A stretch of DNA of 64,000 nt, taken from positions 1,216,001 to 1,280,000 of the forward strand of contig OY969564.1 of the NCBI GenBank assembly GCA_963701095.1, read 5' to 3'. Positions 55,683 to 64,000 of the stretch are shown piece by piece. The notes beneath the pieces were generated by a model that was given only the letters and a program-made list of their open reading frames with translations, did no database searches and had not been told where the DNA came from. Within the stretch, counting starts at the first letter, position 1. Each line of letters begins with the position of its first letter. This DNA is from an uncultured Methanoregulaceae archaeon. Its GTDB lineage: Archaea > Halobacteriota > Methanomicrobia > Methanomicrobiales > Methanospirillaceae. Both the position numbers and the translations under genes were made by a program.

Positions 55683-56938
55683 TCACACCTCGATTCTCTC
55701 TGCTGCCACATCCATCTTCTCCTTGAAATCCTTTAAAAATGCCACGACCCGGTCTGCAGTCTCCCTCTTACACTGCCCACAGGTAATTTCACCGGAACAG
55801 CACTTGCGATGGATTTCCGCAAGTTCTGCATCATCGGTCACCATATGGAACATGTTAAGCAGGTAAAGCGTGCATTTATTCGGTTCACCACCGAGCCGCC
55901 GTTGTTCCTCAAGGGTCATCCTGCCCCCGGTAAGACCGCTCATTACTTTCTTTCGCACCACCGCTTCGGGTTCAAAAAATGAAATCAGGCTCTCGGGAAT
56001 GCTTGACGACATTTTGCCGCCGGTGAGGCCGGGCAGGAAGATATGGTACGTGGATGAGGGGGTGTAAAACGCATAACCTCCACAGACCCTCTCAATTTCT
56101 CTGACCTTCGCACTTACATCATCACATCCGGCGCCCGGATATCAATATGGCCCTCATATTTCTTTGCGTAAGGAAACGCTTTTTTTATTGCATCAAGTGC
56201 TGAATCAGGGGCGTTCTTCGAACGTACACTTATGTACCCATCCCGTTCTTCGACAATGAACATCCTGAATTTATTCGCGATTCCCCGAGTGAGCCGGATG
56301 TGGGGGTCCTGATCGATTCCTACGGGAACCAACGTGGGGGCTGGTTCTCCTTCAACCTGCGGGTACAGGATATCGGCAACCTGTGTAATTACACTGTCAG
56401 CGTGAGCGAGAGCCGTTTCCGGGGAAAAACCGTAGATCGCATTTAGTTCGGAAAAGTTTACCTTAGTTGCTGCCTCGAAAGCTAGATCCTTGAGTCTGTT
56501 ATTTTTGCTTTGGAAATAGGTCTTTCCTTCAAAGCCAAGAGCATAAAGACAGGAGAGGTATTCCTTTCCATATTCCCTGCATTTCTCCCAGGAAAGTCCC
56601 CGAACTGCATATGCTTCCCGATCCGCTATGGTTACATACCCGGTTGCCCCCTGCTGCACATGCCAGACAATTTCTTTCATAAGCATGAGATGACCGAGAT
56701 GGGGATGGCCGCTTGGCATAAACCCGGTCAAAAGATAAAACGGCGTACGGTTCCGGATGGCACGGGCAATCGGGAGATAGTCGCGCTGGCCGACCACAAT
56801 GCCCCGGCGCATGAAATAGGGTATCTCGGGCAATTCGGAAAGTATCGGAGCTATCGGATCGATACCAAATTCGGCAAATGTCTTCTCTACATCAAGAGAG
56901 GGGGTGCTTGACCAGGGATTAATCGATGATTCAGGCAT
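55683..56938 (-). CDS. trpS: Tryptophan-tRNA ligase; frameshift near 56135
   Basis: TGFMPSGHPHLGH and PVGIDQDPH upstream; GLTGGKMSSS in the downstream frame. Confidence 0.93.
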
Positions 56939-56980: not shown

Positions 56981-57991
56981 TTAGAGTTTTATACGGGCGA
57001 ATTCGACGAACTGGATTCCGTTAGTATGTACACAGCCAAACAACATCTTCTTTTTGACGCTGTGGGCCATCCTGACTGAACGGGAGATAACGCTCATGGG
57101 CAGGACTGCCTCTTTTTCTATCGCATGCACCAGCATGTCGGAATGAACATTCTTTCCACAGTAAACCCGGAAATGATGGCCGAACTTGTAACCGGTCCGG
57201 GCAATAAAATCATGCCGGCGTAGTTCGGTGTAGACTTTGTCTTTAGCAGCGAGTTCCGGATCATTTGCTTTCGCAACTTCAAAAAACTCTGTTGAGTTCA
57301 GCGGCGAATCTTCTCTGGTAAGACGAACAATTTCCTTTCCCATCAGATACAGCAGTTCTACCGGTGTAATCATAAGCCGTTCTTCATCAAAACGCTTACC
57401 AAAACCTGCTTTTTCCAGTTCAGACTGAGGTGGCACCCGGATCATTGCAGATGATCCAACCAGTACGGCATCGGAGAGCTCAATTCGGGGAAGAGGAATA
57501 CCGGGGTCAGCCAGTTTCTGGATCTTGATCTCGTAGTAGGTCAGTTCTTCCTCATCGTCGACAACTGAAAGTACGTATTGTTTACGCATATTCCTTGCAG
57601 TGACTACTTCTTCGATCAGATTCGTAAACCGGATCGGTTCTCGCTCCGAGAGGACGCGGACAAGGTAAAGCGACTCACCGGTACCTGGTTTTTCACCGCG
57701 CCGGAATACCCGAAAATCGTGCGGACCTGTCTGGACGACATAACCACGTTCACGCAGATCGCGGTACACGAGGAAGCTTCGCAGGAAATTGCGCTGGTTG
57801 GCGTACTCATAGAGGAGGGTATCAAACGTGTAGCCCGGAATCTCAATCCTCTTGCGGTGAAGCAGGTAGAGGGCTTCCTGAGGCGCGAGTCGTACCCCGT
57901 CACCTTCGGGTCGCCCATACCCGCTCTGGTCGTACAGCACCCGTCCATCCCTTCCAGTCAGCACAGATGTGCCGTCAAAAGACGCCTTCAC
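56981..57991 (-). CDS. endA: tRNA-intron endonuclease (two-domain type)
   Basis: Duplicated VY.DLR.RG domain; GYKFGHHFRVY, HS and AHSVKKKM. Confidence 0.93.
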   Translation of the reverse strand: MKASFDGTSVLTGRDGRVLYDQSGYGRPEGDGVRLAPQEALYLLHRKRIEIPGYTFDTLLYEYANQRNFLRSFLVYRDLRERGYVVQTGPHDFRVFRRGEKPGTGESLYLVRVLSEREPIRFTNLIEEVVTARNMRKQYVLSVVDDEEELTYYEIKIQKLADPGIPLPRIELSDAVLVGSSAMIRVPPQSELEKAGFGKRFDEERLMITPVELLYLMGKEIVRLTREDSPLNSTEFFEVAKANDPELAAKDKVYTELRRHDFIARTGYKFGHHFRVYCGKNVHSDMLVHAIEKEAVLPMSVISRSVRMAHSVKKKMLFGCVHTNGIQFVEFARIKL

Positions 57992-58283
57992 TGCCAGATC
58001 TATTGTTGCCGAAGCGTTATAAGTGCACGGGAAAAAGGAACGTGCCCTTATGCGCGTCCCGGTATTTCCAGATCGAAATCCTTATGAATTACAATAATCT
58101 GGAACAATGCCTATTAAAAGGTAAAAATCGAACATGTATAGTCAGATTGTATCTCATAAGTATGCTTATTTGCACGTCCCCGAGAGTGGATTAATTCCGG
58201 GAATATTTGGGTAATACTATAAGGTACATTGATCACCCACACACCGGATTCATTTCAGCAGCCAATTGTACGCGGCGAAAAAA

Positions 58284-58925
58284 ATGATGGTGCATCAGAA
58301 CAGCGACCTTGGATGCCGACGCAGGAGTAACATCAACCTCGCGGGTTTTCTCGCGAGGTCAGCGGTAAACGGTCCTGGCATCCGGGCCGTTATCTGGGTG
58401 CAGGGGTGTCCGATCCAGTGTAAAGGTTGTTTTAACCAGGCATTCTGGTCTTATTCTCGAGGCAATCTGGTTTGTGCAGATGATATCACCGACAGAATCC
58501 TTGCTACGAAAGATATCGACGGGGTTACGTTTTCCGGGGGAGAGCCGTTTGCACAGGCAGACGCACTTGCATCCGTGGGAGAACAGGTTCAGGAAGCAGG
58601 GTACACGGTCGTGACCTATACAGGGTATACGTTCGAGCAGCTTACCTCAAGTGCAGATCCTGCATCGAGCCGGCTCCTGAATGTTACCGATCTTCTCATT
58701 GCAGGCCCCTATATCAGAGCCCAGGCATGCAATCACCCATATATCGGTTCATCAAACCAGCAGCTCATCTCCCTTACAGAAAGGGTTTGCACGGATTTCG
58801 TGAATGAACAAACCGATAGTGAGATTATCGAATTTTCGATTACACCAAGAGGAGTAATCACGACGACTGGTTTTCCGCAGGAAAACATGGTCCGCAAGAT
58901 TGCTACCCTCTGCAGGGAAACGTGA
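58284..58925 (+). CDS. NrdG-like radical SAM (4Fe-4S single cluster) protein
   Basis: NGPG.R.VIWVQGCPIQCKGCFN, GVTFSGGEPF, YTGY and GSSNQ. Confidence 0.88.
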   Translation: MMVHQNSDLGCRRRSNINLAGFLARSAVNGPGIRAVIWVQGCPIQCKGCFNQAFWSYSRGNLVCADDITDRILATKDIDGVTFSGGEPFAQADALASVGEQVQEAGYTVVTYTGYTFEQLTSSADPASSRLLNVTDLLIAGPYIRAQACNHPYIGSSNQQLISLTERVCTDFVNEQTDSEIIEFSITPRGVITTTGFPQENMVRKIATLCRET

Positions 58926-58929
58926 TATC

Positions 58930-59328
58930 ATTTCACATTTCAGCCGTATTCGAACTACCTTCCGGCACCGTGAAGCATTAATCCAGTGCATGCAGGAGCT
59001 CGGCTATACAGTCGAAATAGAGACCACCATCAGGGGCTACCACGGCCAGCACAACGTGGACATTGCTGTGAAAAATACGGGAGGATACGGACTTGGTTTT
59101 GTAAAAAACCCAGACGGCACGTACGACATGGTAGCGGACTGGTGGGGCATTTCAGGAAAAGGCGAGAAAAAGATTGCCGAAGAACTCAAACAACAAGCAG
59201 AAAAAATCCAGAAAGAATATGCAAAAAAAATAGTGCTCGAACAAACAGCTGCCGACGGATTTTCCCTGATCTCAGAAACCGAAGAGTCAGACGGGACCGT
59301 GCGGATAGTTGTCAGGAGGTGGAAGTAG
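58930..59328 (+). CDS. DUF1257 (Ycf35-like) protein; expected start position reads ATT
   Basis: SHFSRIRT, L..LGY, IRGYHG, GF....DG.Y..VADWW, Q.EY and terminal IVVRRW. Confidence 0.8.
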   Translation: MSHFSRIRTTFRHREALIQCMQELGYTVEIETTIRGYHGQHNVDIAVKNTGGYGLGFVKNPDGTYDMVADWWGISGKGEKKIAEELKQQAEKIQKEYAKKIVLEQTAADGFSLISETEESDGTVRIVVRRWK

Positions 59329-59331
59329 TCT

Positions 59332-60891
59332 ATGCAAATTGCTGAACCCGATTTTTCCCGCAGGTTGAATGTCTCGCTCAGGGCCCGGGTTACGCTGATT
59401 GTAGTGATTACACCGGAAGAAGAACGGGTTGTTTCGCAAATCCATGATGTCTGCGAGAGATGGGATCCTCCCCGCCAGTGTATCGCCTGGGATAGCGTCG
59501 ATGGTTTTTCTGTGATCGTTGGCAATAAAAATTTCATGAGCCAGTCCAAGGACCCACTCGCGGCACTCGATGATATCGTCAAGACAGGAGAGGATGCAAT
59601 TGTTATTCTCAAAGATTTCCACGAGTATTGGAACAATCCTCAGGTAAAACGACGGATTCGCAACTTTTCGCAGGCATTCCGGTATAACCGGCGCACGATT
59701 GTGATCGTGACCCCGACACCGCGGGTGCCGGATGAGATCCGCGACGATGCGGTAATCGTGCATTTTCCGCCACCTTCGGCAGCAGAGTTATCTGCTGATC
59801 TCGATACCCTGCTTGCCACAAGTGGCATCGCTTGTTCACTATCTCCCGCAGGCCGGGAAAAGATTATCCAGGCCGCCATCGGCATGACCCTGAACCAGGC
59901 ACGCCGGGCATTCTCAAAAGCGATTGTGACCCATGGCACGCTTGACGACCGGGATATTGATGCGATCATCGCGGACAAAAAAGACATCCTGAGCTCCTCG
60001 GACGCACTTGAGTTTTATAGTTATACTGAGGCTCCGGAGAACGTTGGGGGCCTTGCTGTGCTCAAGGAATGGCTTTCCTTGCGTGAACGGGCATTCACAC
60101 AGGATGCACGCGACTTCGGGCTCCCGTCGCCAAAAGGTATCGCGTTGATCGGAATCCCCGGCACCGGTAAAAGCCTCACTGCAAAAATGATCGCCGATCT
60201 CTGGCACTTACCCCTGCTCAGGCTCGATGTCGGGGCACTCTTCGGCAGCCTCGTCGGAGAATCTGAGGAGAGAACGCGCCGGGCGCTCTCACTTGCCGAG
60301 ACTATCAGTCCCTGTATCCTTTGGGTGGACGAGATTGAGAAAGCATTTGCGTTTGGCAGCGGGGATGCAGGCACGAGCCAGCGGGTCTTTGCCCACCTTC
60401 TTACCTGGATGCAGGATAAAACTTCTCCCTGTTTTGTAGTCGCCACGGCCAATAACATCGCCGCCCTCCCACCGGAACTCCTACGAAAGGGCCGTTTCGA
60501 CGAAATATTCTTCCTCGACCTTCCAACAACTGAAGAGCGTCGCGAGATTTTTACGGTGCACCTTAAGAAACGCAAATGCATCCCTGCTGAATTTGATCTC
60601 GATTCCCTTGCGCAGAAAAGCGAAGGCTACGTAGGCGCCGAGATCGAGCAGACGATCATTGATGCGATGTACCGGGCATTCAGCGAGAATATGCGCCGGG
60701 TAACGACCGCTGACATTCTTCACTGCATGAAAACACAGGTCCCCCTTTCTGTCTCACAACGGGAGACGGTGGCAGCTCTCAGGGGCTGGCTTGCTGAAGG
60801 TCGGGCGCAGTCTGCATCGCGGGTAGCCACGACACCATCAGGGAACGGAAAAGTGATTGCACTGGAGACTTTTGATAACAGACACGCTTAG
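59332..60891 (+). CDS. Ycf46-like AAA+ ATPase
   Basis: Degenerate N-domain (EEER, ILKDFH), GGL..LKEWL, GIPGTGKS, LWVDEIEK and TANN..LPPELLRKGRFDEIFF. Confidence 0.9.
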   Translation: MQIAEPDFSRRLNVSLRARVTLIVVITPEEERVVSQIHDVCERWDPPRQCIAWDSVDGFSVIVGNKNFMSQSKDPLAALDDIVKTGEDAIVILKDFHEYWNNPQVKRRIRNFSQAFRYNRRTIVIVTPTPRVPDEIRDDAVIVHFPPPSAAELSADLDTLLATSGIACSLSPAGREKIIQAAIGMTLNQARRAFSKAIVTHGTLDDRDIDAIIADKKDILSSSDALEFYSYTEAPENVGGLAVLKEWLSLRERAFTQDARDFGLPSPKGIALIGIPGTGKSLTAKMIADLWHLPLLRLDVGALFGSLVGESEERTRRALSLAETISPCILWVDEIEKAFAFGSGDAGTSQRVFAHLLTWMQDKTSPCFVVATANNIAALPPELLRKGRFDEIFFLDLPTTEERREIFTVHLKKRKCIPAEFDLDSLAQKSEGYVGAEIEQTIIDAMYRAFSENMRRVTTADILHCMKTQVPLSVSQRETVAALRGWLAEGRAQSASRVATTPSGNGKVIALETFDNRHA

Positions 60892-60897
60892 CATCCT

Positions 60898-63689
60898 ATG
60901 AAAATTCCTCCCCTATTTCCGGTTATCGGCCCTTTTTTTTCCGGCGTTCGGTTCGTGGTATTGCCAGAGCTGCGAAATGCGGGGATCTCCAGGCAGTCCG
61001 CAAACTCACCGCCATTGTTTCGTCCTGCCCGGATAAATTTTCCCGTTCCAGGGCTCTTGAGGTCCTTGCATCGCTTTCATCGCAGGCTGCCATCGACGAA
61101 TTCTGCAAAGAGGTGATAATCCGGGATAATCAGGAACTTGAAAAAGTTGCTATCAACCAGGCATACACACCTTTGGAACCGGGATCGAGGGCGGTTTTTC
61201 TTTATGTCACCGGGCAGGATGAAGCGTTATGCCGGTTCGATCCTGATGCCCATCACCCGTTATTAGCTAATGGGTATGCTACGGCACCGGCCAGAATAAA
61301 AAACCGGGTTCTCTGCGGTGCTTCTTCTCCCCGCATGGACCGGATTCTTGCCCATGCACTAATCGGAACTGACCCGGTGCGCGCTGCAGGTATATTGACC
61401 TACCTTGAGTGGGAGGTAGTCATCTCCGGTTTGACCCGGGAGAAAGCATGGGATGTGCTGTGGCTTTTGGTTATTGCTGCACCTCCATCACTTACAGTAG
61501 TAGTTTTAGAAAACATGAGGGTTGCCGGCTGGAAACCGTTCGGTGACAGCATGCGGGTCTTTGAGGATCTGATCAACGAGCTTCCGGAAGGATGGGCTTA
61601 TCCCGCTCCTGAAAAACCTATCCTATCCATGAGCGACCAGAACAGCCAGTGCCTGAGACTTGCATTCTCCCGTGATGGCACTCTTCTTGCGGCAGGAAAA
61701 AGCGACGGGAAGATTGCAATCTGGCAAGTCTCCTCAGCCCGGCTTTTAACCTCCCTCTCAACAAATGCCGGATCGATCAATTTCATTTCATTCACATCGG
61801 ACAATACGAACCTTATCATAGGCGGGCGCACTGGAATGATCGCCTGCTATGGCATTCCTTTAGGAAACACGATCTGGTCGGACAAAGGTCGCCCGTTTTC
61901 TTGTGTTGCAATGTCAAGAGATAGAGAAGAAATTATTGTCAGTGATGATCAGGGAAAGATTACCCGTCTTATGTGTCAGACCGGCAAAATTCTGCTCACA
62001 ATATCAGGACTCATATCCAAGGTTACGGTCATTTCCCTTTCCCCTGACAAAAAATATATTGCTTTTGGCCATATGGATGGCACCATTTGCTGTAAGGAGG
62101 CAGGGACCGGCACAGATGTATGGACAGTGCCGGGTACCGGCAACGCTGTAAGGGCCCTTGCATTTACCGGACAAGACAACCAGCTGTTCGTAGTTTATGA
62201 ACGAGTTCTCCCTGCCCTTAGGGACGGAAATACAGGAATTTTCCTTAGGACTTTCGATGGATTTTCCGGTCGCCCCTCCTGTTATGCGATATCAGCGGAA
62301 AACAGTATGGCAGGGATTGGCAGCGATGATAGAGTACTTCGTTTCTGGAACATGCATGATAAAAACCCGATAGCATCATTTCCCTTCTACAACCGCATCC
62401 CGACATGCTGTTGCCTGACACCTGATGCTAATCTAGCCGCTGTCGGTTGCAACGATGGAACGATCTTCTTTTTCAGTGTTCACGAAAGACAGAAAATAAA
62501 AGAATTCCGGGGGTGTAAACAATCCGTCGCCACCTGTTCGATCTCTCCGGACGGAAATATTCTTGCTACGACGGGAGGAGATGGAACCGTCACCCTCTGG
62601 AGTATTCCTACCGGAGAACTTCTCCGGACACTCCGGAGACCGGCAGGTGCGATAACCGCCCTTGCTCTCACTTCCAGCGCTGCTGGTGCCGGCATAATTG
62701 CAGGCACTACTGATGGCAGGATCCGCATCTTCTCCTGTGAAGATGGCGGACTTGTAAGATCTATCGATATGTACACACCATCGATCACGACCCTTGCCGT
62801 CAGTCCTGATGGAACATACCTTGCCTGTGCCGGAAAAGACGCAAGCCTTCGTTTCTGGGACCTTGCCAAAGGAGGCCTTGTTGCCACGTGTGATACGCCC
62901 AAATCGAGTGTGCGGTGTCTTGCCTTCCTGCCGGATAGAGCCGCATGTATTTCCTGCGGTTGGGATGGAAAAGTGCGGATCTGGGATGTGACAGGTGGAA
63001 AACCGCAGGAGATCCTGGTCGGGCATTCGAGTATTATAACCTGTTGCAGTGTAGATCCCCGAGGACGTTTTTTTGTCACTGGAAGCAATGACACGACCCT
63101 AAGGATCTGGCAACTGACCGGTGAAAAAACGAGTGTCGTTCTCAGGGGTGCGAAGCAGGAGGTGAGTGTCTGTGCGATTTCCCCGGACGGGACACTCCTT
63201 GCCGCTGCTGGCGCTGATCCTGAGATCCAATTATACCATTTTCCGGAGGGGATTGTTGCAGGAACTATCCCCCAGATCCCAGGAAGACCCTCGGCACTCG
63301 CTTTCACTGATGACGGGCTTATGATTGTGGTTGGATATGATCATGGCACCACCGCGTTTTATGCTGTCCACGGACATTCCCTGATCCGGATTCTGCCCAC
63401 CCACTCAGGAAAAGTTACCGGAATCGTTGCTATAAAAGGAGAGGACTGCTTCGTTACCAGCGGTACTGACGGGATGATCCATATCTTCCGGATCCCTTTT
63501 ATGCGGCCCTTATCCCGGACCTCATTTACAGACCTTGCTCTTGCCCGGGAACAGGCTGCCGTTACTGGATCTACGGCAGCACAATGGAGGTTCCTATGCC
63601 ATCTTCTATCCTTTCGGTTCCAGAACGAAATCGAACTCTGCCCGACATACCGTGATGCAGGAATATATGATATCCAAATTGTCGGGTGA
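60898..63689 (+). CDS. Large WD40-repeat protein with helical (HEAT-like) N-terminus; frameshift at T8 60933-60940
   Basis: Roughly 14 repeats of the S.DG..LA.G..DG...W type; ATG 60898 joins the long ORF if one T is added. Confidence 0.85.
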
Positions 63690-64000
63690 TTCTCGTGAAC
63701 AGGTACGCACAACCCACCCTGCCAACAGTTCAGCTCGGCGTAGACTTCGGAACCAGTTCGCTGGTCATTTGCATACCAGGACAAGGTAACGACGGATTCC
63801 GTACTCTCGCATTCCCCGGGTGGTCACAGGAGATAACCGGAGCGATTTCTGGTGAAGCGGTCAACGCTGTACCGGTATTGATCCTTTACGATCAGGACGG
63901 GAAGAGAACCATTGGTGATGAAGTTACGCGTGCGGGTGCTGCTGATCATCCAACAACGGCACGTTGGATCCGAAAGTACCTGCTCGAGGAGAGCCCGGTG
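63686..64000 (+). CDS. Hsp70/DnaK-like ATPase, N-terminal part (runs off the window; absent from the ORF track)
   Basis: GTG overlapping the WD40 stop (GTGA) opens 105 stop-free codons: ...VQLGVDFGTSSLVI...VPVLILYDQDGKRTIGDEV..., matching the Hsp70 phosphate-1 motif GxDFGT. Confidence 0.75.
   Translation, partial: MILVNRYAQPTLPTVQLGVDFGTSSLVICIPGQGNDGFRTLAFPGWSQEITGAISGEAVNAVPVLILYDQDGKRTIGDEVTRAGAADHPTTARWIRKYLLEESPV

Follow-up and report, generated by a model that had tools for sequence, protein, structure and literature searches.

What could join a radical S-adenosylmethionine (SAM) enzyme, a DUF1257 protein, a Ycf46-type AAA+ ATPase, a WD40 protein and a relative of Hsp70 in one operon of a methanogen? 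This question is raised by the right-hand end of the window, a 64,000-nucleotide stretch of DNA from an uncultured Methanoregulaceae archaeon (contig OY969564.1, positions 1,216,001 to 1,280,000), whose source genome (G000) is a single 2.63-Mb contig, 86% complete. An initial annotation, made from the sequence, had described five genes here and proposed a dedicated protein-recognition and remodelling module. The operon genes do form a module, and we find that it reaches further, to six genes and, with high confidence, to a ribbon-helix-helix (RHH) regulator and a protein with three predicted transmembrane helices (3-TM), the eight genes making one co-regulated unit. All six operon proteins come from known families, yet the set is an undescribed system.

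Composition and predicted control of the operon

The five genes of the window lie on the forward strand, divergent from endA (56981-57991, tRNA-splicing endonuclease), with 4, 3 and 6 nt between the first four and a GTGA overlap into the Hsp70-like gene (Table 1). Our coordinates agree with the arrangement given in the initial annotation and with its reading of a fifth gene from 63686, whose GTG start and GVDFGTS peptide open an Hsp70-family protein. All five genes are real, and reading past 64000 adds DUF2997 as a sixth, which ends a few bases before the convergent nfo. The 6-nt gap before the WD40 gene holds only when a frameshift in a T run near 60932 is taken as an error, and not in the assembly as it stands.

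An alignment of 38 copies shows strong conservation over the 290 bp that precede the operon, and boxes of the GTAwTAC type lie in this stretch. With a matrix built from the operon boxes, two outstanding sites were found in G000, each before a paralogous RHH-like gene of about 100 codons. In that matrix Methanolinea boxes were dominant; the box of the operon itself scored low with it (11.6), and apart from the two sites the genome had no more matches than shuffled sequence. For the reverse search, the matrix comprised 20 boxes from the RHH/TM promoters of 12 other genomes. The operon promoter then ranked first in G000, where the cluster of boxes 1-3 scored 39.1 versus 27.2 for the next; one of 4753 AT-rich windows reached 30, and the median of 65 operon promoters was 27.7. 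The boxes stand 11 bp apart before both RHH paralogues in G000 and before the RHH gene in genomes G338 and G339, which have the RHH-TM pair with boxes; the pattern did not find such a pair in G340. Similar boxes are present in G109, though the strict pattern gave nothing there or in G266. RHH proteins repress at repeated boxes, and homologues of the predicted regulator carry the source names Arc/MetJ-type ribbon-helix-helix (JGI, NCBI). No Pfam family matched the 3-TM protein above cut-off, and a scan for sigma-70 promoters and terminators gave chance level only.

The operon and the RHH gene also occur together. We took a census of 117 family genomes (G000 and 116 that are at least 90% complete), in which 45 had both DUF1257 and the RHH gene, 2 had DUF1257 only, 6 had the RHH gene only and 64 had neither. 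The RHH gene was present in 45/47 DUF1257-positive compared to 6/70 DUF1257-negative genomes, and outside the genus the DUF1257 list and the RHH list are the same 16 genomes. In G109, a single contig, the order is RHH (reverse), TM, radical SAM, DUF1257, AAA+, WD40, Hsp70, DUF2997, and in locus L070 a gap-free 340 bp separates the end of the operon from the TM-RHH pair. Both the operon and the RHH gene have stops in G014. Among operon-less genomes, G004, G015 and G020 have an RHH gene without a TM neighbour and with most or all boxes gone, and the RHH gene of G022 has stops.

Table 1. Genes and predicted operator boxes of the unit. Positions are those of the window unless a genome or contig is named.
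Feature	Location	Strand	Basis or remark
Operator box 1 (predicted RHH site)	58075..58092		score 17.1, 4th best single site in genome; conserved in 38 aligned upstream regions
Operator box 2 (predicted RHH site)	58149..58166		score 13.1; among best-conserved columns of upstream alignment
Operator box 3 region (predicted RHH site)	58200..58228		box pattern in 35/65 upstream regions
Radical SAM protein, glycyl-radical activase type, 213 aa	58284..58925	+	Fer4_12 E 2e-33; CxxxCxxC
DUF1257 (Ycf35 family), 132 aa	58930..59328	+	ATT start; E 2e-22; invariant N-terminal Ser-His
Ycf46-type AAA+ ATPase, 519 aa	59332..60891	+	motifs; profile phrog_8638
Helical N-terminus, WD40 propellers and acidic C-terminal tail, ~930 aa	60898..63689	+	ATG start
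Lid-less Hsp70-family gene, ~541 aa	63686..64000, on past the window to G000:C1:1281312	+	GTG start; GVDFGTS
DUF2997, 67 aa, sixth operon gene	G000:C1:1281330-1281533 (window-equivalent 65330-65533)	+	Pfam E 4e-12
3-TM protein, 163 aa	G000:C1:1834569-1835057	-	three predicted membrane helices
RHH protein, predicted repressor, 104 aa	G000:C1:1835204-1835518	+	divergent from 3-TM gene
RHH paralogue	C1:1068829-1069128 (L342:4830-5129)	-	own boxes; no TM neighbour; stop shortens end

Beyond the window, the unmended assembly splits the Hsp70-like gene over two frames. In short-read contigs from runs X1, X2 and X6 the T run near 60932 is longer by one T, and those of X1 and X2 have one base fewer within the Hsp70 gene, at window-equivalent 64875; X1 and X2 are possibly from the source sample itself, and X6 is from a different study. 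Because these contigs differ from the assembly at both places, both operon frameshifts are assembly errors. The mended frames encode about 930 residues (WD40) and 541 residues (Hsp70), matching intact relatives. The short-read contigs also rule out programmed frameshifting and phase variation, both of which we considered for the T run. The genes for trpS (window 56114-56938) and a DEAD-box helicase (L001:14266-15632) look split too, which fits single-base assembly errors. The ATT start of DUF1257 (58930-58932) is the same in the short-read contigs; L039 also has ATT and L033 has CTG, and non-AUG initiation may limit the DUF1257 subunit.

Properties of the encoded proteins

The radical-SAM protein scored under all NrdG and PflA cut-offs (TIGR02491 107 versus a cut-off of 126), and its nearest solved structure is the PFL-activating enzyme (E 1e-19). 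It had been described as an NrdG-like activase lacking a glycyl-radical partner, and it is an orphan of this kind: we saw no glycyl-radical enzyme linked to the operon, Gly_radical had no match in the 86%-complete genome, and the class III reductase of the genome has its own NrdG2, above cut-off and encoded elsewhere (TIGR02495-positive gene at L344:1820-2638). The C-terminal hairpin of the protein bears a weak likeness to the start of DUF2997 (hhalign E 5e-4, probability 31%). Two candidate radical sites were set aside: the 'RGY' of DUF1257 was dropped as a universal glycyl-radical motif, and the tail Gly of the WD40 protein was dropped because the residue is missing in L042.

The AAA+ protein combines an N-terminal half without Walker A (GxxGxGK in 0/69) and a C-terminal domain that has Walker A in 69/69 as well as Walker B, sensor 1 and the Arg finger. 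Its pore loop is mostly Leu-Val-Gly (LV in 51/69, FV in 10/69, YV in 5/69). A length of about 500 residues, an inactive N-half, one active classical AAA domain and a DUF1257 neighbour are all Ycf46-type traits, and the L033 orthologue is 43% identical to a copy in L109, whose upstream gene passes NF052617 (slr0373). The assignment to Ycf46 was made by full-length likeness and context, as no curated Ycf46 model matched in Pfam or NCBIfam.

In the alignments, Ser2 and His3 of DUF1257 and Cys28 of DUF2997 are invariant. A structure model of DUF1257 (predicted local distance difference test, pLDDT, 81) gave weak matches in a fold search, with the KA1/TBP-like fold at Z 6.9 at most plus two unnamed viral proteins. 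Atlas look-alikes of DUF1257 and DUF2997 all scored <0.9; a 207-aa cluster with DUF2997 in 71% of its members resembles DUF1257 at 0.80, which is a lead only. Solved structures gave no sequence match for DUF1257, DUF2997, the AAA N-half or the RHH protein.

For the fourth protein, labelled HEAT/WD40 at the outset, the WD40 part of the label stood and the HEAT part was weak: on an intact relative, HEAT_2 stayed below cut-off (E 8e-4). Full-length WD40 proteins as low as 26% identical end in a helix and two acidic strands, and WD40 paralogues in bacterial loci end in the same tail. We estimated the ratio of nonsynonymous to synonymous substitution rates (dN/dS) on 16 close pairs chosen by hand. 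Purifying selection acts on every gene, with dN/dS of 0.06 for AAA, 0.11 for DUF1257, 0.18 for DUF2997, 0.25 for radical SAM, 0.26 for Hsp70 and 0.28 for WD40, and of 0.05-0.10 for flank genes. Within the WD40 gene, the last 45 codons stand at 0.18 versus 0.25-0.36 elsewhere; within the Hsp70 gene, the peptide-binding domain is the most constrained part (0.19 versus 0.28 elsewhere). Diversifying selection on WD40 was considered and is absent in gene-wide dN/dS, site models aside.

The Hsp70-family protein is non-canonical, as had been suspected. A model of the L033 orthologue (pLDDT 84) has an actin-like nucleotide-binding domain and a beta-sandwich peptide-binding domain, and its best Foldseek matches are lid-truncated DnaK, BiP and Hsc70 (E 5e-29, 17-19% identity). 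The C-terminal helical lid is missing: the model finishes in a strand at 532-541, and the 120 listed homologues are 526-555 aa long. The phosphate-2 motif DxGGG occurs in 0/38 close Methanoregula copies and 12/22 distant copies; it is present in 120/120 homologues found with a motif-bearing query, and G109 keeps an intact DFGGGT. Because the main ATP motif is lost in this lineage, its Hsp70 probably serves as an adaptor and not as an ATPase that remodels. The proposal that both ATPases remodel needs changing to that extent. No grpE or dnaJ lies between endA and nfo, and three canonical dnaK-grpE pairs lie elsewhere in G000 (C1:897429, 1452217 and 518761), so the view of the fifth gene as canonical dnaK with grpE/dnaJ fails. 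Bacterial copies add a GrpE-like gene (Pfam GrpE E 2e-7).

Distribution, gain and loss

Searching with the AAA+ protein found 79 loci, 73 archaeal and 6 bacterial. The five genes stand in order in 64 of the 73 archaeal loci; 8 are cut at contig ends and one (L066, in G014) is decaying, with stops in radical SAM and DUF1257 and the WD40 gene missing. DUF2997 follows the Hsp70 gene in 65/67 loci. The 6 bacterial loci of this search have AAA+ alone or with DUF1257. The AAA+ gene is found in 14/36 genomes of the genus and 0/24 genomes of other families of the order, and DUF2997 in 15/301 genomes of the phylum (8/19 in the family of the methanogen). The Hsp70 family is widespread (1021 matches at E 1e-20), with Anaerolineae, Gemmataceae, Armatimonadota and cyanobacteria named among its sources. 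From a metagenome set, 43 of 80 loci were examined, the other 37 being mostly 25-29% matches that resemble ordinary DnaK; all six genes were present in 8 of the 43, in several gene orders, and most others were short. That the genes might not co-occur in other genomes is refuted by these many archaeal and bacterial loci. The module is dedicated and conserved, as had been proposed for a methanogen, but it is not special to methanogens, and many bacteria have it with GrpE.

Bacterial loci often carry several WD40 paralogues. A copy on a Pseudanabaena plasmid (L112:7130-29426) has at least 5, most of them tailed, and toxin-antitoxin insertions. Elsewhere a smaller core of AAA+, DUF1257, DUF2997 and often radical SAM is found with other cargo: it is accompanied by a HhH membrane protein on a Bacillus plasmid, and in another archaeal family (L378:7991-17784) AAA+, DUF2997, DUF1257 and radical SAM enclose a superfamily 1 (SF1) helicase and two unknown large genes. 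Phage L338C has AAA+ and the DUF pair with no obvious cargo. On a Treponema plasmid (L283:7354-9509), radical SAM and a Ycf46-type AAA+ lie within a contractile-injection locus, with no DUF1257 or DUF2997 found nearby. These data fit a constant core of AAA+, DUF1257, DUF2997 and radical SAM with an exchangeable input module, probably the tailed WD40 protein and Hsp70, joined by GrpE in bacteria. Among 80 viral loci, none held the system Hsp70 (best identity 33%); viral contigs gave one DUF1257 locus and one AAA locus.

Gain and loss have been frequent. At 27 endA loci, from 30 genomes first scored negative, nfo lies beside endA in 23; 1 has the operon after all, 1 is cut and 2 lack nfo. On an endA tree (a quick tree of 88 rows, one of which, L313, is wrongly labelled absent), the presence label changes 17 times, well-supported branches require at least 14 of these changes, and in the nearest relative, G271, the site is empty. 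For L061/L087, the synonymous rate (dS) is 0.14-0.26 in the operon versus 0.63-0.89 in the flanks, and L034 is discordant; both cases suggest that lineages have swapped the cassette as a whole.

Several neighbouring features were recorded separately. Genes between DUF2997 and nfo in some relatives were set aside as members, being mostly on the other strand and variable; one, at L034:16262-17368, encodes a zinc-ribbon, CAP-domain protein on the opposite strand (by Pfam on L034 only), and the CAP-domain gene has similar counterparts in L037, L046, L047, L053, L062, L066, L068 and L069. A divergent subfamily has an FGE-sulfatase-domain gene before grpE and Hsp70 (L227:293-1078, Pfam on L227 only; similar in L229, L224 and L223). 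In another archaeal family (L377:3303-9794), distant AAA+, DUF1257 and DUF2997 genes lie among small mobile-element-like genes. A row of vWA, PP2C and protein-kinase genes (Pfam), which we take to be a TerY-P-type triad, is found 17 kb past the downstream end of the operon, at L002:6844-10267 (window-equivalent 82844-86267).

Proposed mechanism, alternatives and known systems

We tentatively favor, at a little under an even chance, the reading that the eight-gene set is a repressed, stress-induced protein-remodelling machine in which Hsp70 feeds the AAA+ motor and the radical-SAM enzyme acts as a redox switch. In this scheme, the predicted RHH repressor would act at the operator boxes to keep the operon off. 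The acidic WD40 tail would be gripped by the Hsp70 relative, which would present the WD40 protein with its catch to the Ycf46 AAA+; in Methanoregula the Hsp70 groove may hold the tail without an ATP cycle. We link tail and Hsp70 because, in two fast-evolving proteins, constraint is strongest on the tail and on the peptide-binding domain, and because WD40 paralogues have the tail in common. The AAA+ protein would then remodel the captured complex with a predicted DUF1257/DUF2997 adaptor, which we pair because the two genes are adjacent in most bacterial loci. As a switch, the radical-SAM enzyme may furnish one of the core subunits with an oxygen-sensitive radical. Repression, the inducing signal, each of the binding steps, the target of the radical and the client are parts of the scheme that we infer.

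The stress reading draws on cyanobacteria, whose ycf46 operon has a CopG-like gene among its members and in which both ppGpp and severe oxidative stress induce that operon, according to the available portions of two reports (PMC13683863, PMC7496141). A link between redox and Hsp70 is suggested because duf2997-ycf35 adjoins the gene of the iron-sulfur (Fe-S) protein Fed7, which binds a DnaJ-like protein, in the part of the source at hand (PMC4284462).

Several observations count against this machine or its parts. No invariant glycine stands out as a radical site: the GYxG loop of DUF1257 is changed in L061/L087 and deleted in L235, with the radical-SAM gene intact in all, and that gene is also intact in L042, which lacks the WD40 tail Gly. 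Because the pore loop mostly lacks the usual aromatic residue, full threading by the AAA+ protein is doubtful. The RHH protein has no Pfam or PDB match; its identity comes from source names, along with a beta-alpha-alpha pattern that we take to be an RHH sign in the 104-aa protein. Fisher values for its association with the operon (5e-4 in a smaller sample and 3e-23) are overstated, as kin are not independent. Six of the 117 genomes have the RHH gene without the operon, and in the smaller sample the operon-less G012 keeps the RHH gene, TM gene and boxes intact. RHH and TM homologues were not found in the 44 bacterial and metagenome loci scanned, the long loci L196 and L214 have Hsp70 without the core, and the Pseudanabaena plasmid copy has no nearby radical-SAM gene.

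The main rival is an anti-virus or conflict system, with the WD40 protein as a variable receptor and the AAA+/Hsp70 core as a threshold switch to dormancy or an effector. It would account for the frequent gains and losses on the endA tree, the endA-nfo sites that are empty, in the nearest relative among others, and the exchange of cassettes between lineages, as well as for WD40 arrays of five or more paralogues in some bacterial loci, the four-gene core around an SF1 helicase, the radical-SAM and AAA+ pair in a contractile-injection locus and the AAA+ and DUF pair in phage L338C. However, the eight genes encode no nuclease, toxin or other effector domain, PADLOC yields, for the five proteins scanned, generic AAA, WD40 and viperin-like hits only, and the genes are single-copy, under purifying selection throughout (WD40 included) and at a fixed housekeeping site, with no system Hsp70 in the viral loci. 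We consider this rival somewhat unlikely. A metal or Fe-S pathway, with a metal or cluster bound by DUF1257 (through Ser-His) and DUF2997 (through Cys) and with the chaperones bringing a dedicated metalloprotein to maturity, is improbable; it agrees with the invariant S2, H3 and C28, with an MSH motif that is near-universal in Ycf35 in the accessible text of one study (PMC13060386), and with the Fed7 neighbour and iron-limitation phenotype in cyanobacteria, as far as the excerpted source goes (PMC4284462). Against it, no metalloenzyme that could be the client co-occurs, Ser-His is missing from the DUF1257 relatives in L284 and L378, and arrays of tail-tagged WD40 paralogues are left unexplained.

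The WD40 protein might instead be the client, its tail an address tag by which Hsp70 and AAA+ fold, export or assemble it, perhaps at the membrane protein. The tail, constant among paralogues that otherwise diverge, and the shared operator of the 3-TM gene would suit this, but no channel or secretion genes co-occur in Methanoregulaceae loci and the AAA/DUF core is also found where WD40 and Hsp70 genes are both lacking, which leaves the idea quite improbable. A chance string of housekeeping chaperone and reductase-activase genes, as the automatic names dnaK and nrdG-like would imply, is scarcely credible: housekeeping dnaK-grpE pairs and NrdG2 lie elsewhere, and across domains the genes stay together in a shuffled order and disappear as a block.

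The remodelling machine can also be drawn in a bolder form. Glycyl radicals are cleaved by oxygen. The machine would then be oxygen-gated and of a new class. Under anoxia the activase would write a glycyl radical into the DUF2997/DUF1257 adaptor, for which Gly-x5-Cys next to the Ser-His terminus is a candidate site, and oxygen would cut or flip it, licensing a Ycf46 motor fed by an ATP-free Hsp70 adaptor with tail-tagged propellers, all under the RHH repressor and a membrane sensor. We regard this form as distinctly unlikely; if true, it would give a mechanism to two plastid orphans, Ycf46 and Ycf35. For a radical-SAM activase to act on a chaperone adaptor would, if true, be new chemistry in protein quality control. 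More generally, Ycf46 and Ycf35, which have been kept from cyanobacteria to algal plastids without a known mechanism, gain a larger machine with defined partners. The candidate docking tag (the 45-residue tail), the predicted 104-aa regulator and the 150-bp operator make the Ycf46/Ycf35 question testable; sister genomes with a clean empty site are natural knock-outs, and motif-bearing and motif-less versions of the Hsp70 exist naturally.

The initial annotation knew of no characterised system with this composition, and our comparisons bear this out. We found no published description of the gene set in the literature, although subscription papers and supplements might mention it, and Ycf35 is called uncharacterised in the accessible text of one study (PMC13060386). 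No partner models of the PADLOC 2023 systems (IetAS, CBASS TRIP13, viperin) matched among the five proteins scanned, which gave only generic AAA, WD40 and radical SAM. The ternary conflict systems of Kaur et al. 2020 (PMC7159879), in the portion of the paper compared, likewise have a chaperone-type NTPase core with propeller or HEAT scaffolds, and include one GTPase theme with Hsp70 and GrpE and one FtsH theme with a radical-SAM gene. In contrast, the eight genes include no MoxR, vWA, TRAFAC GTPase or effector-associated domain of the kinds described there, and Ycf46, DUF1257 and DUF2997 are absent from that text.

Among chaperone machines, a close parallel is DnaK-GrpE-DnaJ with ClpB. Disaggregation by Hsp70 and Hsp100 is a cooperation of DnaK and ClpB, and the operon similarly has an Hsp70 fold beside an AAA+ motor, with a GrpE-like gene in bacterial copies. 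Unlike that system, the archaeal operon lacks the lid, DnaJ and GrpE, DxGGG is lost in close Methanoregula, and the AAA+ protein is no ClpB but has a Cdc48/PAN-like domain behind an inactive half. It is also unlike Cdc48/p97 itself, with TIGR01243 at 106 bits versus a cut-off of 803 and no second active ring. The radical-SAM protein shares NGPGxR and CxxxCxxC with the activases of glycyl-radical pairs (NrdD-NrdG, PFL-PflA), but no cognate enzyme stands beside the operon and NrdD is served by NrdG2. Also close is the cyanobacterial and plastid ycf46 operon (slr0373-slr0374-slr0376; Synpcc7942_0416-0418) together with duf2997-ycf35-fed7, which has a Ycf46-type AAA+ protein, DUF1257, DUF2997 and an Fe-S partner, and to which a CopG/RHH-type gene is linked in the available part of one report (PMC13683863). 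The methanogen system differs in adding a radical-SAM activase, a lid-less Hsp70, a tailed WD40 protein and a 3-TM protein, and in belonging to a strict anaerobe.

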